Of a DNA stretch of 64,000 nt, positions 728 through 63,000 are shown one piece after another (positions within the stretch are counted from its first letter, which is position 1; each line of letters starts with the position of its first letter). Source of the DNA: Terriglobia bacterium. Its GTDB lineage: Bacteria > Acidobacteriota > Terriglobia > 20CM-2-55-15. The translations under genes and the position numbers were made by a program. The notes below the pieces were generated by a model, which was not told where the DNA came from, did not search any database, and was given only the letters and a program-made list of their open reading frames with translations. Where the stretch lies: NCBI GenBank assembly GCA_965218585.1, contig CBDCLE010000024.1, positions 160,001 through 224,000 of the forward strand. The letters run 5' to 3'.

Positions 728-758
728 AGACGGCGGTATTTACTATGCCGCCGTTTTT
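728..758 (+). terminator. Rho-independent terminator after katG
   Basis: AGACGGCGGTAT-TTACT-ATGCCGCCGTTT hairpin ending in a T run. Confidence 0.75.
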
Positions 759-856
759 GTGTGGGCTTCTCGCGCACGCCAGACTTCGCCCATCGAGCCC
801 TTGCCAAGGGCAGAAACGACGTCATAGTGTGCGAGTTTTGATCCGGGCTGAATCAC
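743..856 (-). pseudogene. Ser/Thr protein kinase N-terminal remnant
   Basis: Manual translation VIQPGSKLAHYDVVSALGKGSMGEVWRARE (Hanks kinase Gly-loop); similarity ends after RAR(E). Confidence 0.8.
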
Positions 857-944
857 GTCTAAATAAAACTGCAGAAGGGACTTCGCGTCAATCAGAAGGT
901 CACATGCCTGGGTTACCGCTTAACCGGACAAGTGGTACGTTCAA

Positions 945-986
945 ATTCTCAACGTCCGACAAGATGATTTAACAGGAGTTGAGAAT
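945..986. repeat. 42-bp 17-8-17 palindromic site, copy 1
   Basis: ATTCTCAACGTCCGACA-AGATGATT-TAACAGGAGTTGAGAAT; related copies at 9410, 47665, 50379, 53550, 53608. Confidence 0.85.
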
Positions 987-1049
987 CATTTTCATGGTCG
1001 TTTAGGGAACCGCCGAGTTATTGTCAAAAGTGGTGTTTTGCCGATTGAC

Positions 1050-2297
1050 TCAAGCGGCGGCCTGATCGACGTGGGTCACTTCGATTCCATCGTTGAATTT
1101 CACTCCAGTAATCACCTTGGGCAGATCATCGAATCCTCGTAATCGTCGCCAGTTCTTTTGAGCGCACTGTCCCAGTTTGAACATCATGTGCAGCATGCCA
1201 ACCCGCGTCAGGCAACCCCTGGATCGCTTGGTTCGGTGGCGAATGGTAGCAAAAGTCGACTCAATGGGATTGGTCGTTCGGATGCTCTGCCAGTGCTTGG
1301 CCGGGAAGTTGAAGAAGGCCAGCAGTTCTTCTTTGTCTTTCTGGAGGCAGCGAGTGGCTTTCGGATACTTCGGCTCATAGGTTTCAATGAACAGATCGAA
1401 TGCCTTCTCGGCGTCTGCCTGTGTCTGAGCCCGCCAGATCGCGTGCAAAGCCTGTTTCGCCTTCGCCTGGGCCGACTTCGGGAGCCCGTTCAGTACGTTC
1501 ATGGTCTTGTGCATCCAGCAACGTTGGTGACGTGTCTCGGGATAGATTTCCTCCAGTGCGGCCCAGAATCCCATCGCACCGTCTCCGATGGCCAACTTCG
1601 GGATATTCATCCCACGCGACTTCAGCTTTAACAAGACCTCGCGCCAACTCTGTGTCGATTCCCGGACACCGTCTTCGATTGCCAGAAAACGTTTCTCTCC
1701 GCGTTGATTCGCGCCGATCACCACCAGTGCGCACAACTTGGTTTCTTCGGCCCGCAGTCCGCTGTAGATACCGTCGGCCCAGACATAGACCCAGCGATCG
1801 GCATCCAATCGCTCCTCGCATCCCCGGCGGTACTGCTCGGCCCAGACCTGTTTCAACCGCGATACCGTGCTCGCCGACAGGCCCTGCGCCTGGGGTCCGA
1901 CAAGAACTTTTAGAGCGTCACCCATCTCGCCGCTGGAGACGCCTTTCAAATACAACCACGGCACCGCTGCTTCCAGCGATTTCGTTTTCCGAATGTAGGG
2001 AGGTACCAGGGCCGACCGGAACGTTACCGGGTCGCCAGTCTTCGCTCGGACTTTCGGGATCTGGACCGTTACCGGCCCCAAACCGGTCTGCAGTTCACGT
2101 TCAGGCAGATAACCGTTGCGCACCACCCCGGCGTTGCCCGTCTCGGTTCTCCGATCGCCGTGGTGGGATAGCAGTTCCGCCAATTCGGTTTCCACCGCGC
2201 GTTGGATCAGTTGCTGAGCTCCAACTCGTAGTAGCTCTGTTATCGGATCCTCAATCGTCTCTCGACCCTCCGGTCCATTCACGTTACTCTTGCTCAT
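1050..2297 (-). CDS. IS256-family (Mutator) transposase, type A
   Basis: RNGY, WADGIY, GDGAMG, QRCWMH, RTTNPIES motifs; probable start MSKSNV. Confidence 0.93.
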   Translation of the reverse strand: MSKSNVNGPEGRETIEDPITELLRVGAQQLIQRAVETELAELLSHHGDRRTETGNAGVVRNGYLPERELQTGLGPVTVQIPKVRAKTGDPVTFRSALVPPYIRKTKSLEAAVPWLYLKGVSSGEMGDALKVLVGPQAQGLSASTVSRLKQVWAEQYRRGCEERLDADRWVYVWADGIYSGLRAEETKLCALVVIGANQRGEKRFLAIEDGVRESTQSWREVLLKLKSRGMNIPKLAIGDGAMGFWAALEEIYPETRHQRCWMHKTMNVLNGLPKSAQAKAKQALHAIWRAQTQADAEKAFDLFIETYEPKYPKATRCLQKDKEELLAFFNFPAKHWQSIRTTNPIESTFATIRHRTKRSRGCLTRVGMLHMMFKLGQCAQKNWRRLRGFDDLPKVITGVKFNDGIEVTHVDQAAA

Positions 2298-2355
2298 AGT
2301 GGCGTATCTCCCTTGGTTGCTTTGAAGTCTGGTAAACAACAAATCAACCAGATAG

Positions 2356-3720
2356 GAGGTCATTACAAAAGGTGTGTAAAAGTCATCAGGCGGCGGCCTT
2401 CGATTTCATCACGACTCTGATGCCGTCAGCGAATTGCTGACCATCATAGACCTCTTGTAAGAGTTCGGATCCTTTTAAGTGTCGCCAAGCCTTCTCAGCG
2501 ACACGTAGTAGCTTCCAGATCATTGCCGTTGCATTCTCGACACGCTTGAATCGGCGAGCGGCGTTGGTGCGGAGGCGAACCATGTCGAAGGGCGATTCGA
2601 CGATGTTGGTTGTTCTCAGATGCACCCAGTGTTGTTTCGGGAACTCATAGAAAGTAATCATCCGGTCCCAGTCCCGCAACAGCGTCTCACCCGCTTTGGG
2701 ATAGTTCTTCTCATATCGGCGGACGAACTGATCCCGCTTTCGTTCGCAGGCCGCGCGGGAGTTCGCGAAGGCCATCCCATGAAGCAGCTGTCTGGCCGCG
2801 GGCTGCTCGGTCTTCGGCAGATGATCGACCACGTTGATCGACTTGTGGTTCCAGCAGCGTTGTTCCTGGCCCTGGGGCTGTTGCTCGGCCAGCGCGGACC
2901 AGATGCCCAGGTGACCGTCCGCGACAGTCAGCCGTCCCAGCTTCAGGCCCCGTCTCTGGAGATTGCGCAGAATGCGGCTCCAGGACTCCTTGCTTTCCCG
3001 CTGCCCGCTCTCACAGGCCAACAGCACTTTGCGCCCGTCTGACAAGGCTCCGATGATCACCAGCAATGCCGCTCGCTCTTTCGCGATCCCCGCTTTCACG
3101 TACAAGCCGTCTGCCCACTGGTACACGACCTCGAGGCCGGACAGGTCCTGCTGGACCCACTCGTCATACTCCAACTGCCAGATCGATTTCAGTCGTTGGA
3201 TCGATGCTCGCGACAACGGAGCGCCAGCGCCAAGCAGTCCGCGCATGGCCTGCTCGAAGTCCCCTGTGGCCAGGCCGTGGAGGTAGAGATCGGGAAGTAG
3301 CTCGCCCAGCTGTTTCGATTTCCGTCGAAAATACGGCAGGATCTGACTCTCGAACCGCTCGGCGGTGTTTCGAACCCGAGGTCGTCGAACCTCCATCGTA
3401 CCGTTCATCATTGCGAAGCGTCGCGGTTTCCCGTGACCGTTCCGGTATCCTCGTCGATTCGGACTCCGCTCCGACTTTTCCCGACCCAGAAATTGAGTGA
3501 CTTCGTCCTCGAGCAGCTCCTGTAGCCAGACTTGGACCCGGGATCGCGCCCAGTCCTCCAAACCTTCATACGCGTTCGTTGACGCCACTGATGCCGGTAT
3601 GTTCTTCTTCTTCATGGGTGGTGTACCTTTCTCCCGATTGCTGCCGGGATTGCTTACGGTTTCGAATTCACCGAAAGCGTACACCGCCTTCTCTTTTTAC
3701 ACACCGATTGGAACGACCTC
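2356..3720 (-). mobile_element. IS256-family element type B, copy 1, nested in type A
   Basis: IRs GAGGTCATTACAAAAGGTGTGTAAAA / TTTTACACACCGATTGGAACGACCTC; ACCAGATA duplicated at 2347-2354 and 3721-3728; the uninterrupted site is visible in type A copy 2. Confidence 0.93.
2386..3615 (-). CDS. IS256-family transposase, type B
   Basis: YRNG, WADGLY, ADGHLG, QRCWNH, RTTNIVES motifs; probable start MKKKNI after GAAAGG. Confidence 0.93.
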   Translation of the reverse strand: MKKKNIPASVASTNAYEGLEDWARSRVQVWLQELLEDEVTQFLGREKSERSPNRRGYRNGHGKPRRFAMMNGTMEVRRPRVRNTAERFESQILPYFRRKSKQLGELLPDLYLHGLATGDFEQAMRGLLGAGAPLSRASIQRLKSIWQLEYDEWVQQDLSGLEVVYQWADGLYVKAGIAKERAALLVIIGALSDGRKVLLACESGQRESKESWSRILRNLQRRGLKLGRLTVADGHLGIWSALAEQQPQGQEQRCWNHKSINVVDHLPKTEQPAARQLLHGMAFANSRAACERKRDQFVRRYEKNYPKAGETLLRDWDRMITFYEFPKQHWVHLRTTNIVESPFDMVRLRTNAARRFKRVENATAMIWKLLRVAEKAWRHLKGSELLQEVYDGQQFADGIRVVMKSKAAA

Positions 3721-3774
3721 ACCAGATACGCCGCTCTTCCTCAATCCCTCAAACACCAGATTCGGTTATAACTC

Positions 3775-3868
3775 GGAACCGCCACCCGTTCCGCACTAGC
3801 GGCCATCAGTATTTCTACGATGTCGGCGTGGCCTCGTTCTTCGGCCAAGCCCAGGGCCGTCACCCCCT
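3775..3868 (-). pseudogene. Ankyrin-repeat fragment joined to a kinase-like C-terminal tail (ERVAVP*, stop at 1002-1004 beyond the IS)
   Basis: Manual translation GVTALGLAEERGHADIVEILMAASAERVAVP; removing the IS restores the TAA. Confidence 0.55.
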
Positions 3869-9231: not shown

Positions 9232-9335
9232 TCATTCGATGTTGGCTACTTCACGGGCACGCCTCACCTCTCCCATTCCACCTTTCCCATGCGGCTGAGA
9301 ATCTCGTAATGGCCGAGTTTGGTGCCAGATTCCAT
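9232..9335 (-). pseudogene. Ser/Thr protein kinase N-terminal remnant (frameshifted)
   Basis: MESGTKLGHYEILS / GKGGMGEVRRARE; similarity ends after RAR(E). Confidence 0.8.
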
Positions 9336-9409
9336 GTTCAAGTGTGTCGCTGAAAAAACCGAGAGAAACTCGGTAAAAGATACTAGAGGAGAGAGTTAGT
9401 TGGCATCCA

Positions 9410-9451
9410 ATTCTCAACGCTTGTTAAACGACATTGTCGGACGTTGAGAAT
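9410..9451. repeat. 42-bp palindromic site, copy 2
   Basis: ATTCTCAACGCTTGTTA-AACGACAT-TGTCGGACGTTGAGAAT. Confidence 0.85.
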
Positions 9452-9701
9452 CGCACGGCTCAATCCTGATGCCTTCAGTCCATGTTTTCTTACAGTTGGG
9501 CGCGAATTAGGGCAGGCGTGCATAACGACGTGTAAAATCCGGGCTCGGCTACGGCTAGAATGCACCTGTGACGTTATGCAATGACGTCGCAGAGAAAAGG
9601 AAGGCTCTTGAACCACAGGGGCTCGATTTTCTGAATGATTCTCAAGTCGCGGGTTCGAATCTCTCGCGCCACAATCGTTGATTACAAACGCACTTGACAC
9701 A

Positions 9702-15580: not shown

Positions 15581-15581
15581 T

Positions 15582-47486: not shown

Positions 47487-47599
47487 ACCTTCCAAACCCG
47501 TCGCCCGTCAAAAGGGAACGAGAAGCCATACGACGTGTCAGCGGCGCACAGTGCTCGACTGACTGAACGAATCGCTATAACGGTCAGACCAGGCTTGGA

Positions 47600-47629
47600 G
47601 AACTGAAGGAGCGGGTGCCCGTGCCGTAA
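47600..47629 (+). pseudogene. Kinase C-terminal remnant
   Basis: ELKERVPVP*. Confidence 0.7.
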
Positions 47630-47664
47630 AGTAGGTCGTCCATCCCTGCCTAGCGATGAAATCC

Positions 47665-47706
47665 ATGCTCGAGTGCTGTTAAATCATCTTGTTGGACGTT
47701 GAGAAT
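47665..47706. repeat. 42-bp palindromic site, copy 3
   Basis: ATGCTCGAGTGCTGTTA-AATCATCT-TGTTGGACGTTGAGAAT. Confidence 0.85.
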
Positions 47707-47754
47707 TGGCCTAGATACGGGCGCCAACCTTCTGATTGCTTTACAAATTCCTCT

Positions 47755-49120
47755 GAGGTCGTTCCAATCGGTGTGTAAAAAGAGAAGGCGGTGTACGCTT
47801 TCGGTGAATTCGGAACCGTAAGCAATCCCGGCAGCAATCGGGAGAAAGGTACACCACCCATGAAGAAGAAGAACATACCGGCATCAGTGGCGTCAACGAA
47901 CGCGTATGAAGGTTTGGAGGACTGGGCGCGATCCCGGGTCCAAGTCTGGCTACAGGAGCTGCTCGAGGACGAAGTCACTCAATTTCTGGGTCGGGAAAAG
48001 TCGGAGCGGAGTCCGAATCGACGAGGATACCGGAACGGTCACGGGAAGCCGCGACGCTTCGCAATGATGAACGGTACGATGGAGGTTCGACGACCTCGGG
48101 TTCGAAACACCGCCGAGCGGTTCGAGAGTCAGATCCTGCCGTATTTTCGACGGAAATCGAAACAGCTGGGCGAGCTACTTCCCGATCTCTACCTCCACGG
48201 TCTGGCCACAGGGGACTTCGAGCAGGCCATGCGCGGACTGCTTGGCGCTGGCGCTCCGTTGTCGCGAGCATCGATCCAACGACTGAAATCGGCCTGGCAG
48301 TTGGAGTATGACGAGTGGGTCCAGCAGGACCTGTCCGGCCTCGAGGTCGTGTACCAGTGGGCAGACGGCTTGTACGTGAAAGCCGGGGATCGCGAAAGAG
48401 CGAGCGGCATTGCTGGTGATCATCGGAGCCTTGTCAGACGGGCGCAAAGTGGTGTTGGCCTGTGAGAGCGGGCAGCGGGAAAGCAAGGAGTCCTGGAGCC
48501 GCATTCTGCGCAATCTCCAGAGACGGGGCCTGAAGCTGGGACGGCTGACTGTCGCGGACGGTCACCTGGGCATCTGGTCCGCGCTGGCCGAGCAACAGCC
48601 CCAGGGCCAGGAACAACGCTGCTGGAACCACAAGTCGATCAACGTGGTCGATCATCTGCCGAAGACCGAGCAGCCCGCGGCCAGACAGCTGCTTCATGGG
48701 ATGGCCTTCGCGAACTCCCGCGCGGCCTGCGAACGAAAGCGGGATCAGTTCGTCCGCCGATATGAGAAGAACTATCCCAAAGCGGGTGAGACGCTGTTGC
48801 GGGACTGGGACCGGATGATTACTTTCTATGAGTTCCCGAAACAACACTGGGTGCATCTGAGAACAACCAACATCGTCGAATCGCCCTTCGACATGGTTCG
48901 CCTCCGCACCAACGCCGCTCGCCGATTCAAGCGTGTCGAGAATGCAACGGCAATGATCTGGAAGCTACTACGTGTCGCTGAGAAGGCTTGGCGACACTTA
49001 AAAGGATCCGAACTCTTACAAGAGGTCTATGATGGTCAGCAATTCGCTGACGGCATCAGAGTCGTGATGAAATCGAAGGCCGCCGCCTGATGACTTTTAC
49101 ACACCTTTTGTAATGACCTC
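47755..49120 (+). mobile_element. IS256-family element type B, copy 3
   Basis: Same IRs; 8-bp duplication ATTCCTCT at 47747-47754 and 49121-49128; 1 bp longer than the other copies. Confidence 0.94.
47860..49090 (+). pseudogene. IS256 type B transposase with a +1 frameshift near 48383
   Basis: AAGCCGGGGATC here versus AAGCGGGGATC in the other two copies. Confidence 0.8.
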
Positions 49121-49187
49121 ATTCCTCTCTTAGTATTCCTTACCGAGTCTTGCGCGGTTTTCGCGACACTCCATAACCCTGTCAAGA

Positions 49188-50222: not shown

Positions 50223-50300
50223 CTGGGTCTCCTCGTTCAACAGCAAGACCGCGCTGTGCTGTACTTTCTAGTTACTTGAACATGGGCACGGCTGATTCGA

Positions 50301-50318
50301 CGGGTGCCGGTACCGTAA
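50301..50318 (+). pseudogene. Kinase C-terminal remnant (very short)
   Basis: CGGGTGCCGGTACCGTAA = RVPVP*, 60 bp before palindrome copy 4. Confidence 0.55.
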
Positions 50319-50378
50319 TTCTTTAAGGCTAACTCCCGATCATCTTCGCTGACACTAAAAACCCCATCTTTTAGCCCT

Positions 50379-50420
50379 TTTTTCACTGTCCGAGAAGATC
50401 GTTTGCGAGGACTTGAGAAT
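50379..50420. repeat. 42-bp palindromic site, copy 4 (diverged)
   Basis: TTTTTCACTGTCCGAGA-AGATCGTT-TGCGAGGACTTGAGAAT. Confidence 0.75.
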
Positions 50421-50677
50421 TGCGTGCCGTTAACTCAGGACAATTCTCGATGTTAGACGCCCGATGAATTAGGGGAGGTTTTCAGAACTCCAACTCTTGA
50501 AATGCGCGGCTTAGCGCCTCGGTGATAGCCACGTCGAATGGCCCATCCGCCACGTTATCGCGCGATCAACTGGGGCGAGTTTTTTAGAAAGCGCGCGGCC
50601 GGCGACTACGCGGATTACGGCGACGAGATTCAGATCAGCCACCACTACGCATAGCGCCAACGGCAAAGGGGGACTCG

Positions 50678-52492: not shown

Positions 52493-52797
52493 TCGTCAAC
52501 ATGGAAACGATCAATCAAGATCGTGTGCGGCTGCTCGATTCACCGGCTTACCCGAATGTCAGTGAGGCTTACGCTGAGACCTTCGACAGGCAAAAGAGAC
52601 TGGCAGGAACCTTCGATGTCTGGGTTTCATCACATGCCGGTCATTTCGGACTTCACGATAAATTCGAGCCTGGAGACTCTTACGATCCGGAGCGCTTCGT
52701 CGGGATCGACGAATATTTGGAACGCATTCAGCAGTACGAGCAGATCTATCAAGATAAGCTCAAACAAGAACGGCAAGATCGATTGACCAAAGAATGA
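52486..52797 (+). pseudogene. Subclass B3 metallo-beta-lactamase C-terminal remnant
   Basis: VLIVNM..IN, P.YP....Y..TF, DVWVSSHAGHFGLHDK..PGD.YDP.RFV; HxHxDH region absent. Confidence 0.7.
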
Positions 52798-52818
52798 GGT
52801 CAAGTCCTGAGAAATCAT

Positions 52819-52917
52819 GCCAGCTCAACCGGTCGCTGCAACACATGCATTAAATGTCTCTGCCGGAGTTGCGAACTCCAGAGTCTTGCGTGGCCGTTGG
52901 TTGAGCCTTCTTGCAAT
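52819..52917 (-). mobile_element. IS30-family remnant (transposase C-terminus and right end)
   Basis: Manual translation IARRLNQRPRKTLEFATPAETFNACVAATG*. Confidence 0.8.
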
Positions 52918-53290: not shown

Positions 53291-53513
53291 AGTCGAGGAT
53301 CGACGTAGCGGCCCGGATAACTGCTGCCATTAGAGGAAAACATCCCATGAGCGAAGAACTTCGAGACAGACAGATTTCGGAAATCATCAAGCTCCTCCAA
53401 AGAATCGCTGAAGCACTTGAAAGAACAGCTGAAATAGAACACTTAGAACACACTGACACTTGAAAAATGGCGAAATCGACGGAAGCTGCCGTTATTGGGA
53501 CTAAGGAGCACAG

Positions 53514-53543
53514 AACTGATTCGAGGAACTGAAGGAACGGGTG
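53514..53543 (+). pseudogene. Kinase C-terminal remnant
   Basis: N*FEELKERV directly before palindrome copy 5. Confidence 0.7.
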
Positions 53544-53549
53544 ATTGTG

Positions 53550-53648
53550 GAGGTCAAGTCCTGAGAAATCATCTTGTCGGACGTTGAGCATTGGCGAATT
53601 ACTGAGGTTTTTCAACGTCCGGAAAGTCGTTTGTCAGGACTTGAGAGT
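53550..53648. repeat. Inverted pair of palindromic sites (copies 5 and 6)
   Basis: GAGGTCAAGTCCTGAGA-AATCATCT-TGTCGGACGTTGAGCAT (53550-53591) and TTTTTCAACGTCCGGAA-AGTCGTT-TGTCAGGACTTGAGAGT (53608-53648). Confidence 0.8.
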
Positions 53649-53720
53649 TTTCTTGCGTATAAATCCCATCTGTAGTCAGATTTACGCACCTTACGGTCCG
53701 CTTCGACATACACTAAAAGA

Positions 53721-54737
53721 ATGTACCGGCGTCAGTTTCTTAAGGCATCAGCATTGATAGGCGGTGGCCTCGTAGGCACTCCTGTATTCAACACCAACGC
53801 TCAGCAATCCGGTCAAACTGGTACCAGCGAGCAACCCATTCGCATCACCCTGGGTGGGTATGGCCCATCAACGTCAAGTTTCAGCCAGGGATTGAAGCAA
53901 ATCGGCGATCGCCTCGGCGCCAGATTTGGCGACGATGTCGAGATCGAATATCTCTACAATATTCTAGATCTTGGTTATGAGGAAGCAGGCGATCTGACAC
54001 GGCTAGTTGATAATGGTGTGCTCTCGCTCGCGTACTTAACCATGTTCGACGAGATTCCCGCGTTGGAAGTCGCCGCGCTTCCATTTCTGTTTGCAAACAG
54101 CGCCGCAGCAAGGGTTGCGATGGATGGAGCGCTAGGACAGTCAGCAATAGATACTATCGAGGCTGATACGAACTTTCGCGTTTTGGGATTTTTCGAAAAT
54201 GGCTTTCGCCATGTATCCAACAGTGTCAGGCCGGTTCACAGTCCGGTCGACTTGAAAGGCCTCTCAGTTCGCGTTCTTGGTGTGCAAGCCAGAACATTTG
54301 AATTGCTTGGAGCCAACCCGAAGGTCATGCCTCTATCAGCGGTATTCGATGGCCTTCAGTCTGGCGAATTGGATGGTCAGGAAAACCCTTTTGAAAACGT
54401 TGTCAGCTACAACCTCTACCACTCACAGCGTTATTACACTGAGACTTATCATTCGTACTTGTCTCGACCAATTTTCGTTCACCGACCTTCATTTGAAGTC
54501 TGGCCTGATGCACTGCAAATGGAGATGCGCACGGCCGTCAAAGAAGCGGTAACCCTTCAGCGGCAGCTGCATGATCAGGCAGAAATCGATTCTGCCGAGA
54601 TTATTCGTGAGGCTGGTGGGGAAATTGTTACGCTCACGCCGCAGCAACGCCAGGCATTTGTCGATGCCGTTGCGCCTATTTACGCAGACGCTCAGAATCA
54701 ATACGATCGGGTACTGCTGAATCTGGTAGGTCTATAA
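53721..54737 (+). CDS. TRAP transporter substrate-binding protein (DctP family), Tat signal
   Basis: RRQFLK, LPFLF, ENGFRH, DLKGL.VR, DGQENP. Confidence 0.92.
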   Translation: MYRRQFLKASALIGGGLVGTPVFNTNAQQSGQTGTSEQPIRITLGGYGPSTSSFSQGLKQIGDRLGARFGDDVEIEYLYNILDLGYEEAGDLTRLVDNGVLSLAYLTMFDEIPALEVAALPFLFANSAAARVAMDGALGQSAIDTIEADTNFRVLGFFENGFRHVSNSVRPVHSPVDLKGLSVRVLGVQARTFELLGANPKVMPLSAVFDGLQSGELDGQENPFENVVSYNLYHSQRYYTETYHSYLSRPIFVHRPSFEVWPDALQMEMRTAVKEAVTLQRQLHDQAEIDSAEIIREAGGEIVTLTPQQRQAFVDAVAPIYADAQNQYDRVLLNLVGL

Positions 54738-54869
54738 TCACCAATTGTCAGTGACTGATCAGCTCTTAAAAGACGTTCGTCCCAAAGACTTCCTGTCATC
54801 ATGTTCAATACGAACTGTGGACCAGAACTGACCTCGGCGGATCTGTTGCGGAGGCAACCGAGTGACTCC

Positions 54870-54928
54870 GAGATTGTCGTTGTCTTGAACTGGCTCGAAG
54901 AACTGAAGGAACGGTGACTGTGCCGTAG
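54870..54928 (+). pseudogene. Kinase C-terminal remnant (frameshifted)
   Basis: EIVVVLNWLEELKER / VTVP*. Confidence 0.8.
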
Positions 54929-57222: not shown

Positions 57223-57368
57223 TGGTGTCCCTCCTACCGTCACGTCGGTTTGTCTGTTCGAACCTGTGCGGATCACCCAGAACCGCCCTGGGAAGAATAG
57301 CCGAGATTATGAGCGTTGTGCAGGTATTTGGTAATCGGTGGGACCGTTGGCCTCATAAAGCCGGGCGT

Positions 57369-58055
57369 TCAGGCCACCGGAGTCAATCCCAATACGATGT
57401 CAAATCGCGCTTCCAGTTCGCCGATCTGCGACTCCGGGATCGGAGCAAAATCGACGATTATGGTTTTGCGTGCCTCCGGATCGGTGACTCGGGCCAAAAG
57501 GTTGTCGCGTTCATTCTGCGGCGCCCCCTTGACGTAACACTGCGTCGTCCACTGTTCGTGGCCTTTCATCTTGACCGCAAAATGGATGTGCGGCGTTCGG
57601 TTTCCATAAGACACCGGCTTGATCGTGCGGAAATAGTATTCGCCCGCGGAACCTGTCAGAAAGCGTCCAAACCCCTGGAAGTTCTGGTCGCGCTCCCCGT
57701 TGGCGTCGCTGTCGCTATGCAGGTAGACTCCGTTGTGATCCACTTGCCAAATTTCAACGACAGCGTTCCTCAACGGGCCACCTGAAGCGTCCAGCAGTCT
57801 CCCTGTCAGGTGGGTCACTTCACCGATCGCAGGTGTGATGCCATCGTTCACCGTCAGCAGGTCATTGTCGGTGTCCAGTGGAAGGCGGTCCGGATAAAAC
57901 GGCCCCTCTCCCTGGGGTGCTGTAAGTGTGAGTTGCTCGGCGAACAGGCCGGGAACGTTGAAGAGGCTGTGCACACTGAGCCCGGCAACTCCGCACGCCA
58001 TGCCTCGAAGAAAAACGCGCCGACTGTCGAGCAGTTTCGATTCATGCATCGTCAT
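57369..58055 (-). CDS. Intradiol ring-cleavage dioxygenase-like protein with a Tat-like signal
   Basis: SRRVFL, EGPFY, VEIWQ....GVY, FRTIKP..Y..RTPHIHF. Confidence 0.9.
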   Translation of the reverse strand: MTMHESKLLDSRRVFLRGMACGVAGLSVHSLFNVPGLFAEQLTLTAPQGEGPFYPDRLPLDTDNDLLTVNDGITPAIGEVTHLTGRLLDASGGPLRNAVVEIWQVDHNGVYLHSDSDANGERDQNFQGFGRFLTGSAGEYYFRTIKPVSYGNRTPHIHFAVKMKGHEQWTTQCYVKGAPQNERDNLLARVTDPEARKTIIVDFAPIPESQIGELEARFDIVLGLTPVA

Positions 58056-58255
58056 GCTCCTTGGAGCGTAGAGACGCCCGTTTTGATCAGAACTAAATGT
58101 AAGAAAGCTGGTGAAAGTCTATCGACGAATGGAATTGGAAGCAACGAATTCTCGACTTCCAACGTAGGGGATCCAAGCACCGGACCCGGCCATTACCTAA
58201 TCCGCGACATGAATTGAATTAGAATGCACGTGACAAACATCAAGAGGGGGAGCAA

Positions 58256-58684
58256 ATGAAGAGATTCTTGACCAGCTTTTGGACTGCCCGCGTCCTGGTG
58301 ATCCTCGGTTTCCTGCTCGGTTGGAACAGCTTAAGTGCAACAGCGAGGCACATCGGGAACCCTCAGACCTTGCTCGTCGGGGGACTAGAGACGCACAGCT
58401 GGCACCATTTCTTTAGGGAACTTGGGGGCGATTTCGGTGCAATGATTGCCATCCTGGTGATCTTGTTCGCGGCCCAGGGTGTCCGAACGCCGGTCAGCTG
58501 GTGGGTAGTGCTCGTTCTCATGATCGGATTCTACGCGCCCTTCTGGGTCGGCACGCCATTCATGCCCGAACTGGGCGCACCCAGTATGGGAGCCGAAGTG
58601 AATCACCTGATGATGGCCATACCCGCTTTGCTCGGCTGTTTCTTGGCGAAAAGACACTTTCGAGGGGACGCAGCAGGGGTGTAG
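58256..58684 (+). CDS. Hypothetical membrane protein
   Basis: Four hydrophobic segments, conserved-looking His residues, RBS. Confidence 0.7.
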   Translation: MKRFLTSFWTARVLVILGFLLGWNSLSATARHIGNPQTLLVGGLETHSWHHFFRELGGDFGAMIAILVILFAAQGVRTPVSWWVVLVLMIGFYAPFWVGTPFMPELGAPSMGAEVNHLMMAIPALLGCFLAKRHFRGDAAGV

Positions 58685-58880
58685 CTGGTCAGATCCGGGT
58701 GGCGGAGCCAGGTGCTGGGGCAACAGCGACCGTGTTGCGACTCGCCTTCCCAACGCTTATCGGTTGGTCGCTCGTCTTGAGAGGTTGTCATTTATGATTG
58801 CGTTGATGTTTCGAATTCCGACGACTATGTTTATTGGCGCGAACCAATTTGATGCCGGCTTCGCTCGCTCCCAGTCGAGC

Positions 58881-58931
58881 ATTGTCCTGAACTGGTTCGA
58901 GGATCTGAAGGAACGGTTGCCGGTGCCGTAA
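58881..58931 (+). pseudogene. Kinase C-terminal remnant overlapping the next start codon
   Basis: IVLNWFEDLKERLPVP* with TAATG overlap. Confidence 0.8.
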
Positions 58932-59914
58932 TGGGCAACTACGTTGTCGATCTGAATGACGTTCGTCGAGCAGCGGCTCGCATTGCCCCTCACGTTCACC
59001 GTACTCCAGTTATCACGAGTAAGACTTTAGACGACCTGGCGGGCCGAAGCTTGTTCTTCAAATGCGAGAACCTGCAACGTTGCGGTGCCTTCAAGGCCCG
59101 GGGCGCGGTGAACGCCGTGCTGTCCCTCGGTGACGATCAAGCCGCACGGGGTGTCGCTGCGGACAGTAGCGGCAATCACGGCCAGGCGCTGGCGTATGCT
59201 GCCAGAATTCGCGGCATTGCGGCACACATAGCGATGCCCAGTAATGCCCCGATCGTCAAGCAACACGCTGTCAGGGGCTATGGCGGACGGGTGTATCTGA
59301 GCGAACCGACCCTCGAAGGACGCGAAGCGACTCTTGCCACAGTACTTGAACAGACCCACGCCACACGCGTTTCCGCCTTCAACGACCCAGCCATCATTGC
59401 CGGGCAGGGAACCGTCGCGCTAGAGCTGTTGGATCAGGTGGACAACCTGGACGCGCTGGTGGTTCCTGTTGGAGGTGGTGGTCTGATTTCGGGGGTTGCG
59501 CTCGCAGCCCGGGGATTGAACCCTCGAGTCCGCATCTTCGCAGCCGAGCCCCACGGCGCGGACGACGCATATCGCTCCAAAGCCGAAGATCGCTACGTTC
59601 CGTCGCTCGATCCACAAACAGTTGCCGACGGACTGTTGGTCAGCCTGGGAGACTTTACCTGGCCGGTGTTACGCGACTTGGTCGAAGCCGTGATCCGTGT
59701 AAGGGATGATGAAATCCTGCGCGCCATGCGGCTACTGTGGGAACGCATGAAACTGGTAGTTGAGCCAAGCGGGGCGACGTCGGTAGCCGCAACTCTATCT
59801 CGGGAGTTCGCCGAGCTCACAGGTCTTGGCCGAGTCGGCGTAGTGCTCAGTGGCGGCAACGTGGACCTCGACAACCTGCCGTTTTCTGATACAACCACGA
59901 ACGATTCCGAATAG
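58931..59914 (+). CDS. PLP-dependent threonine/serine dehydratase or serine racemase
   Basis: KCENLQ..GAFKARG, SSGNH, VGGGGL, EPSGA, LSGGN. Confidence 0.92.
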   Translation: MGNYVVDLNDVRRAAARIAPHVHRTPVITSKTLDDLAGRSLFFKCENLQRCGAFKARGAVNAVLSLGDDQAARGVAADSSGNHGQALAYAARIRGIAAHIAMPSNAPIVKQHAVRGYGGRVYLSEPTLEGREATLATVLEQTHATRVSAFNDPAIIAGQGTVALELLDQVDNLDALVVPVGGGGLISGVALAARGLNPRVRIFAAEPHGADDAYRSKAEDRYVPSLDPQTVADGLLVSLGDFTWPVLRDLVEAVIRVRDDEILRAMRLLWERMKLVVEPSGATSVAATLSREFAELTGLGRVGVVLSGGNVDLDNLPFSDTTTNDSE

Positions 59915-59973
59915 TTGTCTCGTTGGTAGGGAACTGCCTGTCCAGGCCTCGCACTCGGATCGACATCTCCCTT

Positions 59974-60084
59974 GAACGAATTGTCGGAAGTTGAGGATTG
60001 GTAAATTACCTGCGGTTTTCAACCGCCGGCAAACCCGTTTATCTTCACCCGAGAAGCTGCTTGCGTATAAATCTCATCTGTAGT
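59974..60084. repeat. Diverged copy of the 53570-53676 non-coding block
   Basis: TGTCGGAAGTTGAGGAT...TTTTCAACCGCCGG...CTTGCGTATAAATCTCATCTGTAGT. Confidence 0.75.
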
Positions 60085-60130
60085 TGAATTCACAAAGATT
60101 TTTGAAGCTCACTTCCGCACGTTAATTACG

Positions 60131-61603
60131 ATGCACGTGATGAAGGAGAAAAACACTTTTTCAGGAATGAAACGGCGGGCAAGAATGAGATTATCCGTCG
60201 CTCTCGGCCGAGCACTTTTGTTGCTTGTGATGTCGACGGGCCTGGGCAACGCCGCCCCGACTCAGAATGCAGGTGAAGCACGGAACGTCGAGTTCGTCGG
60301 GCATCATGACCTTCAGGGTCGTGATTCGCTACAGGTGACGGCCAAAGGGGATGACGCGAACGGCGATTGGGTGTACGTAGGGCATTCGGATAACACCTGG
60401 GACCAGACCGAGGGCTTCAATCCCATCACCAACCAACTGGAATGGAACGGGACTTCGATACTGAACGTCTCCGATCCAGCCAATCCGGAATTGATCTGGC
60501 ACATACCGAATACCGTCAGCGCCAACTCCCGCTCGACTTCAGTCGTGTATGACTACATTTTTGATTCCGATCCGACGGGGAGAGACTATCTGATACGAAA
60601 CTCTCAGGGAGAGGGGTTTGCGAAGTTTCAGATCTTCGATATCACTTCCAGGGACACGAATCCGTCCGAGATTCGCTTGGTTGGGGAGATCACCCGGACA
60701 CCGGAAGATTCCTGCGGGCCGGGGTGCGGCGGTTTGCTAACGGCCGTGCACAAAGGCTGGTGGTCGCCCGAGACCGGCCTGTACTACAGCGCAGCCAACG
60801 AGCCGGGTTTTCGCGACGGAAACCACCTGGTGATTTTCGATCTCGCGGACCCAGCAAACCCGCAGTTCGTCGGAAGGGCCTGGTTGCCGGGGCAGCGAAC
60901 GAGCGAACCCGAGACTTCGAACGGGAACAACTGGCACCATCCGATCGTGGATGAAGAAAACGGCCGGGTCTACGGAGCCTATCTGGGTGGAGGAGATGTG
61001 GTTTCCTTTGACATCGAGGACCCGTCCAATCCGGAGCTGGTCTGGCGTATCGATACCGAGCCACCGGGAAGAGGAACCCACACCGTCGCACCCGTATTCT
61101 ATGATGACGTCCCCAACTTCGGGCCCGATTCCTTGCCGAGGACGTATGCCCTGGTTGCGGATGAAGCCACTGGTCCTGACATAGGGTGTGCCGATCCGGT
61201 TAGAACGAAAGTCTACATGTTCGACATGACTGCCGCCGACGAAACCGGCGTCCCCTACCCGGTGGATACATGGCAGGTTCCGGATGCCGATTTCTGTGAG
61301 AAGGGCGGCCGTTTCGGCCCTCATCAATTTGCTGAGACGATCAATGGAGTGCTTAACAGATTCGAAGACAAGATCGCTTACATTCCCTATTTCAATGCGG
61401 GATTGAGGATCGTCGATGTTTCGGATCCTTACAACATGATCGAAGTCGGCTATTACGTTCCCAGCCCGAATGAGAACTCTCACCCTATCCAACCCGGTCA
61501 GCCGACCGTCATCCAGATCAACGACGTGGCTATCGATCGTCTGGGGTTGCTCTATGCGTCCGATAGGGTAGGTGCAGGTCTCTTTGTTCTGAGGCGAGAG
61601 TAG
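60131..61603 (+). CDS. Secreted LVIVD-repeat protein
   Basis: Repeated (I/L).(N/D)(V/L/I).DP.NP units, GRFGPH, YFNAGLRIVDVSDP; start uncertain. Confidence 0.85.
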   Translation: MHVMKEKNTFSGMKRRARMRLSVALGRALLLLVMSTGLGNAAPTQNAGEARNVEFVGHHDLQGRDSLQVTAKGDDANGDWVYVGHSDNTWDQTEGFNPITNQLEWNGTSILNVSDPANPELIWHIPNTVSANSRSTSVVYDYIFDSDPTGRDYLIRNSQGEGFAKFQIFDITSRDTNPSEIRLVGEITRTPEDSCGPGCGGLLTAVHKGWWSPETGLYYSAANEPGFRDGNHLVIFDLADPANPQFVGRAWLPGQRTSEPETSNGNNWHHPIVDEENGRVYGAYLGGGDVVSFDIEDPSNPELVWRIDTEPPGRGTHTVAPVFYDDVPNFGPDSLPRTYALVADEATGPDIGCADPVRTKVYMFDMTAADETGVPYPVDTWQVPDADFCEKGGRFGPHQFAETINGVLNRFEDKIAYIPYFNAGLRIVDVSDPYNMIEVGYYVPSPNENSHPIQPGQPTVIQINDVAIDRLGLLYASDRVGAGLFVLRRE

Positions 61604-61658
61604 TGCGACACCTCTGCGTCTCTCTAAAATGACGACAAGGTGTGGCCGAAGTTCGTTC

Positions 61659-62702
61659 TCACTGTTGTCTCATCACTTCGACACGCAACGGCGACCACGC
61701 CATGCCATCCGGGCTCTCATGAGCACTCGCCAGAACCCCTGGCTCTGACTCTCCAAGAGAATCCAGATCGAACATGCGGATGGTGCCCTGTCCGGGATCG
61801 CTCACGAAGGCTACGCCATTGTGGATCAACACTCCGAAGTTACCGTCCTGAGGTGTGCCGTCGCGCAATTCCACCTCGGCCAGCATCACGCGTGACGCCA
61901 CGTCGAAGAGGCGTAAGTATTGGGGAACAGGGGGCCCCCCACCGCCGCCGTTGGGCACGATCGCGCGTCCGCCAGGACCGATGTCGACGCGTCCCGCGGA
62001 GCGTCGCGAAGCGACTGTCGCCACAACCTTGAACGACCCAGTGTCGATGACGGAGATAGTCTCCTCCCCTCGGTTCGCAACCCACACTTCTCCGCCGTCG
62101 GGAGTGACGGATATGCCCTCGGCCCCCGTCCCTGTGGGAATTACCAAGGGGGAGCGATCCTCCTCCAAAAAGATGACCGACAGCGTTCCTTCCCCGCCGC
62201 GACTGGTCACATACGCGTGGAGCCCGTCAGGGCTCAGCCGTAACATGTGACCTTCCCGACCCCCGGTCGGATAGGTTCGCACGACTTCCATTCGGTTCAG
62301 GTCTATCAAAGCGATTTCGTCGGAATCCTGCATCGTCGCTAACGCGTGCTGTCCGTCCGGGTGGAAAACGGCCGTGTGAGGGCGCGAGTTCGGACCGAGG
62401 TCGATGCGGCCCATGATGCGTGCGTCCGGTATATCGATCAGAATCACGTGCCTGCCTGGGTTGTTGTTGGGTCCGTACTCGGCGGTCATGGCTAGACGTC
62501 CGTCCGGGGACACCGCCACCTCGTGGGGGATGAGGGGGCCTACCGGTAGACGCGCAGCCTCAACACGGGTTTCAAGATCGATGAGAGAGACGCTTCCGCC
62601 GCTACGGTTGGCCACGACGAGTGTGCCTTCCTGGGCGAGGGCGACGACACACGGTAAGAATAGAATCGCGGAAGCCAGGACCAGGCAGGCTATCGATCGC
62701 AT
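61659..62702 (-). CDS. Secreted YncE/YVTN-type beta-propeller protein
   Basis: PHEVAVSPDG, AEGISVTPDG.EVWVAN, ISVID repeats. Confidence 0.85.
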   Translation of the reverse strand: MRSIACLVLASAILFLPCVVALAQEGTLVVANRSGGSVSLIDLETRVEAARLPVGPLIPHEVAVSPDGRLAMTAEYGPNNNPGRHVILIDIPDARIMGRIDLGPNSRPHTAVFHPDGQHALATMQDSDEIALIDLNRMEVVRTYPTGGREGHMLRLSPDGLHAYVTSRGGEGTLSVIFLEEDRSPLVIPTGTGAEGISVTPDGGEVWVANRGEETISVIDTGSFKVVATVASRRSAGRVDIGPGGRAIVPNGGGGGPPVPQYLRLFDVASRVMLAEVELRDGTPQDGNFGVLIHNGVAFVSDPGQGTIRMFDLDSLGESEPGVLASAHESPDGMAWSPLRVEVMRQQ

Positions 62703-62961
62703 CAATGCGTTCCGAGCTATGCGATGAACCGAGGCAGAGGTGAGGTATGCCGTCCGACAACATTGAGCGGACCGCCCTTTATCTGTCAAAGGGGCTCGAC
62801 TAGGATTGTCCCAAAGGCTGACAACATCGAGAGAATTTGTTACGAATCGGCCTGGCTTTCTTGTCATCGGTGGTCGCCCCTATGATCAACTCGCGTTGAT
62901 ATTACTCCCTCACACCTCCTTCTGTCCAAGTGTGTGATTCGATGCCTGACCATGACTTTCC

Positions 62962-63000
62962 GAGGTCAACTCCCGACAAATCCTGTGGGAAGTTTATAGG
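62962..63000. repeat. Degenerate palindromic site
   Basis: GAGGTCAACTCCCGACA-AATCC-TGTGGGAAGTTTATAGG. Confidence 0.5.

Follow-up and report, generated by a model that had tools for sequence, protein, structure and literature searches.

Integron attC sites are described as imperfect hairpins in which R boxes (RYYYAAC paired with GTTRRRY) hold conserved AAC/GTT triplets, and the same description gives them a length of 57-141 bp, a central unpaired spacer of 5-6 nt and, on one arm, 2-3 extrahelical bases spaced by a 6-bp stem (PMC5027507). Minimal mobile elements are described as being exchanged through conserved flanks (PMC3787668), and homology-facilitated illegitimate recombination as proceeding through joins at 3-10 bp (PMC6382021).

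Decayed arrays of a PD40-type Ser/Thr kinase family underlie the flanks of the window analysed here (the whole stretch of 64,000 nucleotides), which are accessory islands. The module between the genes of this family consists of a conserved 3' coding tail (NWFEELKERVPVP and a stop), a hairpin of 40-47 nt (doubled in places as an inverted pair), a promoter-like leader and a conserved 5' head (MESGTKLGHYEI..GKGGMGEVWRARD), and it is found in many copies that are similar across species. As in integron arrays and CALINs (groups of two or more attC sites on one strand without an integrase, whereas a complete integron has its array next to intI), unrelated genes stand co-oriented with a conserved imperfect palindrome behind every one, gene and palindrome being mobile together; as with integron cassettes, cargo identity between species exceeds that of the core, and three congeners have an array-less intI ('In0'). 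In contrast to integrons and CALINs, no array lies beside any intI (34 kb searched around each), the source genome has no IntI, the extrahelical-base pattern is absent, and many sites are accompanied by a promoter-like leader and by remnants of the coding sequence of a single gene family; a fixed crossover at G|TT in the 3' R box, where attC sites recombine, was likewise not found. The hairpin also resembles REP, BIME and REPIN sequences, which are likewise short imperfect palindromes 3' of genes, some of them in inverted pairs, lineage-restricted, present in tens to hundreds of copies and favoured as targets by IS110-family and other insertion sequences; unlike these, it is restricted to a few accessory islands, has no RAYT association and shows kinase-end flanking homology in about half of its copies. 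The exchange of variable genes between relatives via conserved flanks recalls the minimal mobile elements of Neisseria, and one homologous anchor with a microhomology join opposite recalls homology-facilitated illegitimate recombination. However, the anchors here are a dispersed repeat family, not unique housekeeping flanks, and therefore any slot can in principle take any cassette. Acinetobacter pdif (Xer) modules are similar in that short sites delimit discrete gene modules, each site having a pair of inverted arms, one of them better conserved, and a 6-nt centre, but here the orientation is direct rather than alternating and the arms differ from the predicted dif of the genome. The hairpin, whose usual place is between adjacent kinase genes, has multiplied in the accessory islands of this bacterium. 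It and the broken kinase ends mark the seams of swaps of unrelated genes, most likely made by ordinary repeat recombination rather than by a dedicated machine.

Anatomy of the window

An earlier note on this DNA had described a recurring junction of kinase tail, palindrome and kinase head, and such units were recovered (Table 1) as one complete copy and as partial copies at 9251-9461, 47590-47719, 50297-50423, 53513-53729, 54867-54926 and 58867-60115. In the complete unit, read on the minus strand with the insertion removed, an ERVAVP-stop tail remnant is followed by the hairpin (941-987), a leader of ~85 nt and the head, which reads VIQPGSKLAHYDVV...GKGSMGEVWRARE and is ended by a stop near 762. 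The single IS256 that the note saw in this unit proved to be two nested IS256-family elements. The outer one interrupts the tail remnant in its final codons (tail pieces at 996-1014 and 3775-3795) and, as read from the sequence, has the 9-nt duplication GGCGGTTCC on both sides.

Table 1. Module remnants, insertion sequences and cargo genes in the window
Feature	Position	Strand	Evidence
Truncated kinase head and leader	762..902	-	Sequence; nhmmer leader match C24:160768-160902; tblastn residues 1-30
Hairpin repeat, TCTCAAC 5' arm type	935..991 (hairpin 941-987)	-	nhmmer E 1.6e-14
Outer IS256-family element with nested second (2356-3721)	1015..3774	-	Repeats D1, D8, I1; Pfam Transposase_mut x2
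Frameshifted kinase head (MESGTKLGHYEILSRMGK, frame lost) and leader	9251..9418	-	nhmmer leader model positions 2-171; sequence; 23-aa ORF
Hairpin, inverted orientation abutting leaders, loop ACGACA/TGTCGT type	9405..9461	+	nhmmer E 6.9e-13
ELKERVPVP-stop tail remnant, then hairpin 47660-47719	47590..47719	+	Sequence; nhmmer
IS256-family copy, frameshifted transposase, inserted in leader	47748..49181	+	Repeats D2, D3, I2, I3; Pfam; BLAST
Short tail remnant and weak inverted-type hairpin (50383-50423)	50297..50423	+	Sequence; nhmmer E 0.0037
Half hairpin (5' arm and part of loop) closing esterase block	52797..52820	+	Sequence comparison with G001
Tail remnant, hairpin 53546-53604, second inverted hairpin 53611-53647, leader	53513..53729	+	nhmmer
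DctP solute-binding protein cargo	53721..54737	+	Pfam DctP 2.6e-54; boundary alignments in five genomes
Frameshifted tail remnant, no hairpin behind	54867..54926	+	nhmmer E 1e-11; sequence
Full-length tail, stop overlapping ATG of PALP gene	58867..58932	+	Sequence; nhmmer; Pfam
PALP (threonine/serine dehydratase-like) gene	58931-59914	+	Pfam
Degenerate hairpin pair and leader, upstream of LVIVD gene	59980..60115	+	nhmmer hairpin E 0.06, leader 8e-6; alignments with G001, G003
LVIVD cargo gene	60131-61603	+	Alignments with G001, G003

The hairpin of the complete unit scores 69.8 bits with covariance model R1 and has a predicted DNA fold of -7.2 kcal/mol (z -2.3); that at 9405..9461 is predicted to fold at -10.7 kcal/mol (z -2.75), and the pair at 53547-53655 to form one long stem (-23.7 kcal/mol, z -5.9; 0/200 shuffles as good). 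In the right flank, the remainder of the leader interrupted by the IS256-family copy is at 49122-49181 (leader model positions 26-88), and the half hairpin behind the esterase block has a whole counterpart in the congener G001, interrupted by an IS110-family element. The DctP start codon occupies the position of the leader's kinase ATG, and the tail and PALP unit is common to the source genome, G001 and G003.

The kinase content of the window is limited to heads of at most 30 aa and tails. As the note had observed, no intact kinase is present: no Pkinase match falls in the window, and the closest of the 14 in the source genome is at C24:39009. The 10.6-43.6 kb core, which the note had found free of these signals, gave zero nhmmer matches to hairpin, tail or leader/head; its genes are of the housekeeping type (amtB, glnB, pilO/Q, accBC, thiE, bshC, alaS, recX, holA, rpsT, phoH, ybeY and era).

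The module and the kinase family across genomes

The source genome (G000; assembly 95% complete) was searched as a whole with nhmmer, and compared with four congeners (G001-G004). It holds 79 hairpins, 41 kinase 3' tails and 66 promoter-leader/5' heads, with E-values down to 1e-14; the hairpin count is 66-79, being 79 by nhmmer and 66 in the cross-genome comparison. The motifs are confined to accessory islands: 16 clusters, 160 kb together, hold 128/186 motifs, and 76/79 hairpins are within 6 kb of another motif, 3/79 being more than 6 kb from any. The motif is far beyond chance: when the window was shuffled 100 times, the 38-nt hairpin pattern matched 0 times. The repeat is modular, with the discrete hairpin as its chief element. 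The junction of tail, hairpin and head exists as claimed, but its full form is a minority, since both tail and leader accompany 7 of the 79 hairpins; 11 have a tail only, 27 a leader only and 34 neither, and in 34/79 the homology to other copies is limited to ~40 nt.

The hairpin is a discrete unit with sharp limits, an imperfect palindrome positioned just 3' of stop codons, whose 16-nt arms have single-base bulges on opposite arms, 2-4 bp apart. Type-i copies have the arms TCTCAAC...GTTGAGA (YYAAC...GTTRR), and type-ii copies have GGTCAAG, with no AAC on the 5' arm. The nearly invariant loop AAATCATCTT is its best conserved portion, and the 3' arm and loop are kept as a linear motif even without the 5' arm. 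Stem covariation is weak (82.5% of cells paired vs 81.5% in shuffles, a value reached by 46/500 shuffles). Inverted pairs number about 5 in the source genome, and an array at C4:186-202 kb has one hairpin per 1-3 genes, with 12/14 ORFs co-oriented. Two junctions scanned for consensus sequences contained no sigma-70-type promoter, and the hairpin itself gave no terminator in such scans. The hairpin is a discrete REP-like repeat that probably acts in cis on the kinase genes, either at their 3' end or as an operator.

The hairpin is present in two genera of the family, and three species have copy numbers of 66, at least 146 and 116. The order of tail, hairpin and leader is identical in the sister genus, and the module is therefore old and conserved. 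Hairpin and kinase numbers are uncoupled, G002 and G004 having 28-34 kinase matches but only 12 and 4 hairpins.

The longest kinase copy of the source genome matches Pkinase (PF00069, 1.7e-49) and then PD40 (PF07676, 1e-9), and its longest kinase ORF, of 848 aa, ends 153 nt before the tail. None of its 22 heads with a recognisable start opens an ORF that runs from head to tail; G003 has an intact kinase copy (883 aa, C-terminal end ..NVVLNW..EE and a stop). A head-to-tail fusion of 27 aa is present at C15:69549, head truncation points are evenly scattered (model positions 47-219), and head-only pieces are far commoner than pieces of the remaining kinase domain. Two IS256-type elements account for 76 + 22 = 98 BLAST rows in the source genome. 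Other insertion sequences were seen at or near hairpins: three loci of G001 have an IS110-family element in the middle of the hairpin, an IS91-like element lies 20-35 nt from a hairpin in 5/6 copies, and a DDE_5 IS is 27 nt from a hairpin.

Cargo exchange between species

Identity in the syntenic core between the source genome and the four congeners is 71-80%, and most cargo is more alike: 95% for the esterase, 89-94% for DctP, 92-95% for DUF3024, 94% for the amidohydrolase, 90% for the cyclase, 84-90% for LVIVD and 82-88% for PALP. The outer-membrane barrel cargo, at 76-80% to its relatives, is core-like. Cargo stands in place of kinase bodies, in agreement with the earlier note: DctP begins at the kinase ATG after the kinase leader in the source genome and G001 (its upstream context is different in G002 and G004), the LVIVD gene is placed between leader and tail, the cyclase lies 3' of a head remnant, and the amidohydrolase lies 5' of a tail.

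The cyclase block switches at its 5' end within the kinase head, where the upstream head subfamily differs per genome, and at its 3' end in the hairpin. The amidohydrolase block switches 3' at the start of the tail and has an illegitimate 5' end; the DUF3024 block has hairpins at both ends in three genomes, with unrelated outer flanks; and the DctP and LVIVD joins are at short common strings, AAAC(G)ATG and TTTTCGAGG. For DUF3024, the cyclase and the amidohydrolase alike, the hairpin downstream of the gene moves together with it. In our tally 11/16 block ends lie within anchor motifs and 5/16 in no motif, no more than a modest excess over what gene boundaries would give, because anchors fill much of the island intergenic DNA. 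The proposal that breakpoints fall at the motifs stands for head, tail and hairpin as regions, but not for any single fixed nucleotide.

Crossover bounds within the hairpin conflict. Pairs sharing the upstream flank place the crossover at or left of -3 and +9, as those with only this flank in common already differ at -3/-2 or +9, and pairs sharing the downstream flank place it at or right of +16, several of those with only that flank in common having their last mismatch at +16 and being identical from +17 (TTGAGA). These bounds speak against a single cleavage point; sites -3, -2, 9, 10 and 16 vary even where flanks are 100% identical, and many recent pairs are IS copies. In G003 the same motifs are borne on a 35-kb island with a P4-type integrase adjoining a tRNA, an ordinary integrase-borne tRNA island.

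Explanations for the exchange

We favour repeat-driven passive exchange and decay, by homologous and homology-facilitated illegitimate recombination within mobile islands, with a probability of roughly one half. The kinase-end and hairpin repeats would act as portable homology: DNA of relatives would arrive on mobile islands and be integrated by RecA-type recombination inside head, tail or hairpin, frequently with one side anchored and the other joined illegitimately at a few shared bases. Inter-repeat deletions and IS insertions would afterwards erase the kinase bodies, and a cargo ORF fused behind the kinase leader may be retained because it is expressed; a dedicated recombinase would be unnecessary. 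The earlier note had suggested that kinase ends and palindrome serve as recombination anchors, by homologous or site-specific recombination; the homologous half fits, and the site-specific half would be the less likely one. Its idea of a dedicated exchange system is opposed by the lack of a linked recombinase in the searches described below, the even spread of head truncations, the uncoupled hairpin and kinase numbers, the conflicting crossover bounds, a kinase family wholly broken in an IS-rich genome and the integrase-borne island of the relative.

Several observations count against passive recombination. The ~40 nt common to 34/79 hairpins is short for efficient RecA recombination, arrays of the C4:186-202 kb type look like integron cassette arrays, and genes co-travel with their own downstream hairpin. 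A best-conserved loop would be out of the ordinary in a hairpin of purely structural function and is what recombinase crossover regions typically show; the rise of the hairpin in three species without more kinases is unexplained by passive recombination alone; and the core-like identity of the outer-membrane barrel cargo and the block ends outside motifs also weigh against it.

It seems unlikely that the hairpin is a REP/REPIN-like repeat that came from the kinase intergenic region and multiplied itself (by HUH or other activity), with kinase decay unrelated and no role in cargo exchange. It has the character of a REP, being short (40-47 nt), extragenic, imperfectly palindromic, placed directly behind stop codons and present in many copies (66-79 in the source genome), and its inverted pairs fold as one long stem in the manner given in published REPIN descriptions. 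Its limitation to two genera, its big copy-number swings, the 34/79 copies without tail or leader and the IS110-family, IS91-like and DDE_5 elements at or near hairpins agree with this origin. Against it stand the extreme clustering, with none in the 33-kb core, and the weak stem covariation. A REPIN-RAYT pair, with dispersed repeats flanking a single-copy Y1 transposase, did not match: 76/79 hairpins are clustered, the two Y1_Tnp genes of the source genome have no hairpin within 900 nt, and Y1_Tnp numbers do not track hairpin numbers (12 and 12 in G002; 2 and at least 146 in G001).

We consider it slightly more doubtful that the hairpin is recombined site-specifically as part of a cassette system, whether by IntI that works in trans on CALIN-like arrays or by another tyrosine recombinase that cuts the invariant centre of a double-strand core site; hairpin-bounded genes would be excised and inserted, and kinase remnants would be scars of ORF replacement in kinase cassettes. 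The sharp ~45-nt unit, the co-oriented arrays with 1-3 genes per hairpin, the genes that move with their own hairpin and its nearly invariant loop, and the downstream-only pairs with a last mismatch just 5' of TTGAGA all suggest such a site. Type-i arms have the YYAAC/GTTRR core of the R boxes described in PMC5027507, with first and last positions off, but at 40-47 nt the hairpin is shorter than attC (57-141 bp), and its bulges are on opposite arms, not on one arm 6 bp apart. True IntI is encoded in 3/4 congeners (G001, G002 and G003; 440-458 bits vs a cut-off of 265), yet none was found in the source genome, the 34 kb searched around every one of these intI genes gave no hairpin, tail or leader match at E <=1, no repeated hairpins were found next to them, and hairpin counts do not track IntI (G002, 12 with IntI; the source genome, 66 without). 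The co-occurring recombinase that the note had called for was looked for, and none linked to the motifs was found. Furthermore, the crossover bounds fit no one point, and block ends occur in heads and tails too. An 11-6-11 layout like that of 28-bp Xer/dif sites can be drawn on the hairpin (AGTCCTGATAA-ATCATC-TTGTCGGACGT), but a search with a short degenerate motif gave a single canonical dif-like site, the predicted chromosomal dif at C10:37495, and its arms agree with the hairpin core at only ~12/22 positions.

A new integron-like system without a linked integrase, in which a recombinase acting at or near AAATCATCTT would excise hairpin-bounded genes and insert them across dispersed arrays, and cassettes would be born by swapping the ORF of an abundant and dispensable kinase cassette, with promoter, head and tail as scars, appears slightly less probable again. 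Least credible is that hairpin and leader are solely cis-regulatory kinase parts (3' end/terminator, operator, promoter), with random decay leaving the remnants and ordinary island flux the cargo: the module order in the sister genus, the linear conservation of 3' arm and loop without the 5' arm and truncation points that look random fit it, but hairpins far exceed kinases and adjoin unrelated genes in three species, G002 and G004 keep their kinase matches with few hairpins, the consensus scans gave neither promoter nor terminator where they were applied, and head-only fragments greatly exceed rest-of-domain fragments.

If passive exchange through repeats is correct, this would be a clear natural case of dispersed repeats as universal docking homology, in which gene-family ends and a hairpin spread accessory genes among related species behind a ready-made promoter, and the 'minimal mobile element' idea would extend from unique to repeated flanks. 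If, instead, the hairpin is a true recombination site, it would represent a new cassette system in Acidobacteriota-like bacteria, bearing on the unsolved origin of integron cassettes, and cassettes moved without a linked integrase would offer a direct view of gene-cassette origination. In both cases, the hairpin can serve in practice to mark the accessory islands of this genus, and it is a natural target of IS110-family elements.

Clustered kinase-end motifs around a conserved core

Profile scans of the source genome (G000) recovered the motifs on which the earlier note had built its case and found them strongly clustered. Using nhmmer models seeded from the window and one locus, with a threshold of E up to 1e-3, we counted in G000 79 hairpins (imperfect palindromes of 40-47 nt, normally located between kinase genes), 41 tails (kinase 3' coding ends) and 66 leaders/heads (a promoter-like leader with the kinase 5' coding end). 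Of these 186 motifs, 128 fall into 16 clusters that occupy 160 kb (3.5% of the genome), many of them at contig ends, and 3/79 hairpins lie more than 6 kb from any other motif. All junction units listed by the earlier note for the window were found by sequence reading and nhmmer, and a 38-nt hairpin pattern had no match in 100 shuffles of the window. Its complete minus-strand unit (3795-762) does read, with the insertion removed, as ..ERVAVP-stop, a hairpin, a leader of ~85 nt and a 30-residue kinase head followed by a stop; the insertion, however, is not a single IS256 but two nested IS256-family elements with a 9-nt duplication on both sides.

The G000 assembly comprises 26 contigs (4.55 Mb, G+C 0.57), with the window on contig C24 (160001-224000). 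The alanyl-tRNA synthetase reaches no more than 54% identity with those of named genomes, the best being from Acidobacteriota (such as Terriglobia and Bryobacteraceae), which places the lineage in or close to this phylum. The window core (10.6-43.6 kb) carries housekeeping genes (amtB, glnB, pilO/Q, accBC, thiE, bshC, alaS, recX, holA, rpsT, phoH, ybeY and era) and is collinear with four congeners (G001-G004) at 71-80% nucleotide identity. Both window flanks are accessory DNA, in which five IS256-family copies and two IS21-type elements were found. Window position 43588, right after era, is the exact point where synteny with all four congeners is lost; beyond it the congeners remain mutually collinear for 17-20 kb more, a stretch with no motif matches (80 kb), and the G000 counterpart of this downstream core must lie elsewhere in the genome. 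Rfam scanning of the whole window returned two tRNAs alone at the gathering score, and the sole match at the hairpin junction, to a miRNA, was below threshold (21.5 bits versus 90).

As the earlier note stated, the window holds no intact kinase: none of the 14 Pkinase matches in G000 lies there. The longest G000 copy is of 848 aa (Pkinase and PD40 domains), and an intact copy in G003 is of 883 aa, with the end ..NVVLNW..EE-stop. Of 33 leader hits extending into the head, 22 had a recognisable start, the start rule failing for the other 11, and 0/22 of these heads yield an ORF ending in a tail; ORF lengths span 9-848 aa, and the longest ORF ends 153 nt before the next tail. In tblastn with the 848-aa kinase, residues 1-25 were covered twenty times in G000 and residues 300-600 only 3-5 times, with the limit that kinase bodies are ~30-40% identical between paralogues, so that short body relics escape tblastn. 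Head-only kinase fragments dominate in G000, and in the four congeners many fragments cover nothing beyond the first 60-130 kinase-domain positions.

Features of the window and of the compared genomes (C, contig; L, extracted stretch of G000, G001 or G003)
Feature	Location	Remark
IS21-type element	window 44387-46785	adjoins the synteny break
IS256-family elements	window 1015-3774, 15582-16967, 24957-26328, 47748-49120	1015-3774 is the outer nested element; inner, 2356-3721
DUF6152 genes	window 55795-56223; L114:5890-6330; L115:232-1248, 16101-16517, 17466-17864; L117:739-1134	
Ankyrin-repeat genes/remnants	L114:15744-16604 (G000 C4); window 3795-3900 (minus strand)	
Inverted hairpin pair	window 53547-53655	-23.7 kcal/mol, z -5.9
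Near-perfect palindromes	window 26336-26385, 13607-13658, 39488-39583	the first recurs beside leaders at C17:118566 and C4:47123
dif-like site	G000 C10:37495-37522 (minus strand)	
intI genes	G001:C9:714608-715549; G003:C2:3040327-3041268; G002:C41:5422451-5423395	
Island beside tRNA	G003:C1:1581000-1617500 (L134/L135, L134:865-2166)	position matches window ~30.1 kb (tRNA 30084-30156)
IS110-family insertions in hairpin	L011:9878-11350; L009:8250-9712; L143 near 3909	G001
IS110-family match beside hairpin 3' half	G000 C10:1640-2658	possible further case
IS91-like element	L105:1380-3870	five more G001 loci (L106, L108-L111)

Cargo genes and their seams

Arrays such as that on G000 contig C4 (186-202 kb) hold one to three genes per hairpin, and 12/14 ORFs there (at least 80 aa, greedy choice, counted from the first to the last hairpin) point the same way as the hairpins. 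Genes of this type of array encode amidohydrolases, a cupin, DUF3024 and DUF6152 proteins, a cytochrome c, an outer-membrane barrel, a cyclase, an esterase and an ankyrin protein. DUF6152 genes are recurrent cargo, with six copies in four annotated stretches. Ankyrin-repeat genes or their remnants also occur among the cargo; ankyrin-repeat proteins are eukaryote-like and often seen in symbionts.

Most cargo exceeds the core in interspecies identity (esterase-lectin, 95%; DctP, 89-94%; DUF3024, 92-95%; amidohydrolase, 94%; cyclase, 90%; LVIVD, 84-90%; PALP, 82-88%), the outer-membrane barrel (76-80%) being the exception, and the location of each cargo differs from relative to relative. The DctP start codon is the exact join to a kinase leader in G000 and G001, while in G002 and G004 another upstream region, common to both, is found. 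LVIVD has a leader upstream in G000 and G001 and the stop of a tail directly upstream in G003, the joins lying at a common TTTTCGAGG-like string; downstream, a tail remnant follows in G001 and G003. For DUF3024, in three genomes, likeness starts within the upstream hairpin, in its loop or 3' arm, the 5' arms there being unrelated. It stops within the loop of the hairpin belonging to the gene itself, of which the 5' arm is identical in 3/3 genomes and the 3' arms differ. The cyclase switches at its 5' side within the kinase head, the upstream head subfamily differing in each genome, and at its 3' side in the hairpin. High identity of the amidohydrolase ends at the start of a tail, and its 5' end is illegitimate. 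We count 11/16 block ends inside one of the motifs (head, tail, leader or hairpin), which is a modest enrichment over the gene-boundary expectation only, because the motifs fill much of the island intergenic DNA.

A flank-linkage test covered 207 distinct forward-type hairpins (52 from the whole of G000, 103 and 52 from parts of G001 and G003). In the 13 pairs alike only upstream, the mismatch fraction was 0.06 in the 5' arm, 0.12 in the 3' arm and 0.69 just past the hairpin, where it equals the background and is thus not linked; in the 34 pairs alike only downstream it was 0.30 in the 5' arm, 0.16 and 0.07 in the inner and outer halves of the 3' arm, and 0.20, hence linked, just past the hairpin (background: 0.32, 0.15-0.19 and 0.69). 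These fractions place a switch of linkage within the hairpin. The crossover bounds conflict, pairs sharing the upstream side placing them no further right than -3 and +9 and pairs sharing the downstream side no further left than +16; they speak neither for nor against a fixed cleavage point. Sites -3, -2, 9, 10 and 16 vary even among copies with 100% identical flanks, and no crossover map can be drawn because sites within the hairpin vary faster than the flanks. Upstream flanks are 100% identical in 7 pairs, at least three being copies of one IS110-family element. Of the proposal of the earlier note, that kinase ends and hairpin are anchors for homologous or site-specific recombination, the homologous part fits and the site-specific part is not supported.

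Best supported, with a probability of about one half, is a passive account in which kinase-module repeats serve as homology for island-borne DNA. The kinase family, expanded and dispensable, would through its repeated module offer homology for recombination with island-borne DNA from relatives; often one end alone would be anchored, the opposite end being joined at microhomology, and subsequent deletion and IS activity would leave heads and tails behind. Homology-facilitated illegitimate recombination is a mechanism documented for such anchored and microhomology joins, as outlined in PMC6382021, and the outcome would be similar to that of minimal mobile elements as sketched in PMC3787668. G003 has a 35-kb island beside a tRNA, at a position where G000 has none; it starts with a P4-type integrase and contains tails, hairpins, leaders, insertion sequences and a group II intron reverse transcriptase, indicating that motif arrays travel on classical islands.

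The hairpin as a repeat and the search for a recombinase

The passive account leaves unexplained the bare hairpin at more than 100 copies and the loop as its best-kept part, and three rivals are therefore retained. A covariance model of 42 hairpin copies, run against 35 genomes from the family, had 66 matches in G000, at least 146 in G001, 116 in G003, 12 in G002, 4 in G004, 0-7 in five sister-genus genomes and 0 in the 25 genomes from nine other genera. In G001 to G004 the kinase matches were 24, 28, 32 and 34, respectively, and hairpin number is uncoupled from kinase number. The sister genus keeps tail, hairpin and leader in the same order, so the module predates the copy-number burst. The exact hairpin pattern occurred in one metagenome contig and no viral contigs of wider collections. 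In an all-versus-all comparison of 69 copies, most pairs are alike over only ~35-45 nt centred on the hairpin, the longest likeness extending 20-40 nt from the loop to the left in 20/69 copies and to the right in 32/69. That the hairpin is a REP-like repeat is unlikely. No RAYT link was found, Y1 transposase genes having no flanking hairpin and their numbers being uncoupled from those of hairpins. A search for IS91-type transposases gave 0 matches in G000, but none in the control genomes either, so that G000 may still carry one.

The loop AAATCATCTT and 3' arm ..CGGACGTTGAGAA hardly vary between copies; for the 5' arm there are at least two types (ATTCTCAACGCC and GAGGTCAAGTCC), and some copies lack it. 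Indels distinguish subtypes. Lone copies fold weakly (z +1.7 to -2.75), whereas a forward and a reversed copy form a strongly folding inverted pair. Stem covariation is weak, with pairing in 82.5% of cells versus 81.5% in shuffles (reached by 46/500) and a covariation score equalled by 28/500. Three more near-perfect palindromes stand in the window, and the one with a GTGCGGTCTATGACCGCAC core, found beside leaders at two other loci as well, may belong to another small family of repeats.

An integron-like or other site-specific system appears quite improbable. The co-oriented arrays resemble cassettes, and true IntI genes are present in G001, G002 and G003 (440-458 bits each, above the curated cut-off), with broken integrase copies besides the full one in G003. 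G000 has no integron integrase, its best matches being two Xer-like genes (84 and 71 bits versus a cut-off of 265), and the 34 kb inspected around each of the three intI genes contained no hairpin, tail or leader match, with E values of up to 1 allowed. No repeated hairpins were found adjoining the intI genes, and the congeners' integrons are In0-like, a recognisable cassette array being absent nearby; two improvised attC scans, one around the intI genes and one over the window, were uninformative, and the second missed even known hairpins. Compared with attC as described in PMC5027507, the hairpin is too short and has its bulges on opposite arms. No linked recombinase, which the earlier note suggested looking for, was found in these searches. 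As to Xer/dif, the only canonical dif-like site that a short degenerate motif picked out in G000, ATGTCGCATAA-TGAGTA-TTATGTCAAGT, is unlike the hairpin core and, as the single such site, is likely the chromosome dimer resolution site (the main text of Kono et al., 2011, contains no Acidobacteria dif sequence). Contigs of four sequencing runs over window 49150-64000 show joints (e.g. 50421 to 53622), which are not taken as evidence of excision, their shorter sides of 21-53 nt lying within repeated motifs at a unique depth of 2-4x.

There is little chance that the hairpin is a purely regulatory element. Its reversed form adjoins leaders. The tail-hairpin-leader unit is modular, the companions of the 79 hairpins being tail and leader in 7, a tail only in 11, a leader only in 27 and neither in 34.

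A literature search, supplements excluded, found no description of kinase-end or hairpin cassettes or arrays. The arrays are akin to known kinds, namely REP-like repeats and repeat-anchored cassette exchange.

Insertion sequences at the hairpin and genome erosion

The hairpin is a target for insertion sequences of three types. An IS110-family element (380 aa, DEDD_Tnp_IS110 and Transposase_20) sits in the hairpin centre at the same point at three G001 loci, separating the 5' arm from the loop and 3' arm; such a hairpin-specific IS110 target is of interest for bridge-RNA targeting. An IS110-family match in G000 also adjoins a hairpin match of the 3' half only. In 5/6 G001 copies of a 2.5-kb IS91-like element, which encodes a 293-aa tyrosine recombinase and a 394-aa IS91-type Y2 transposase, a hairpin stands 20-35 nt away from the left end, in either orientation, and in G000 a DDE_5 element lies 27 nt past an isolated hairpin.

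Two IS256-type elements account for 76 and 22 BLAST rows in G000 (full and partial), mostly 99-100% identical; 6/76 rows have a motif no more than 15 nt away, and most of these interrupt a leader. G000 is heavily eroded, and the IS256-family expansion together with the broken kinases suggests recent genome erosion, which by analogy may be like that of host-restricted bacteria.
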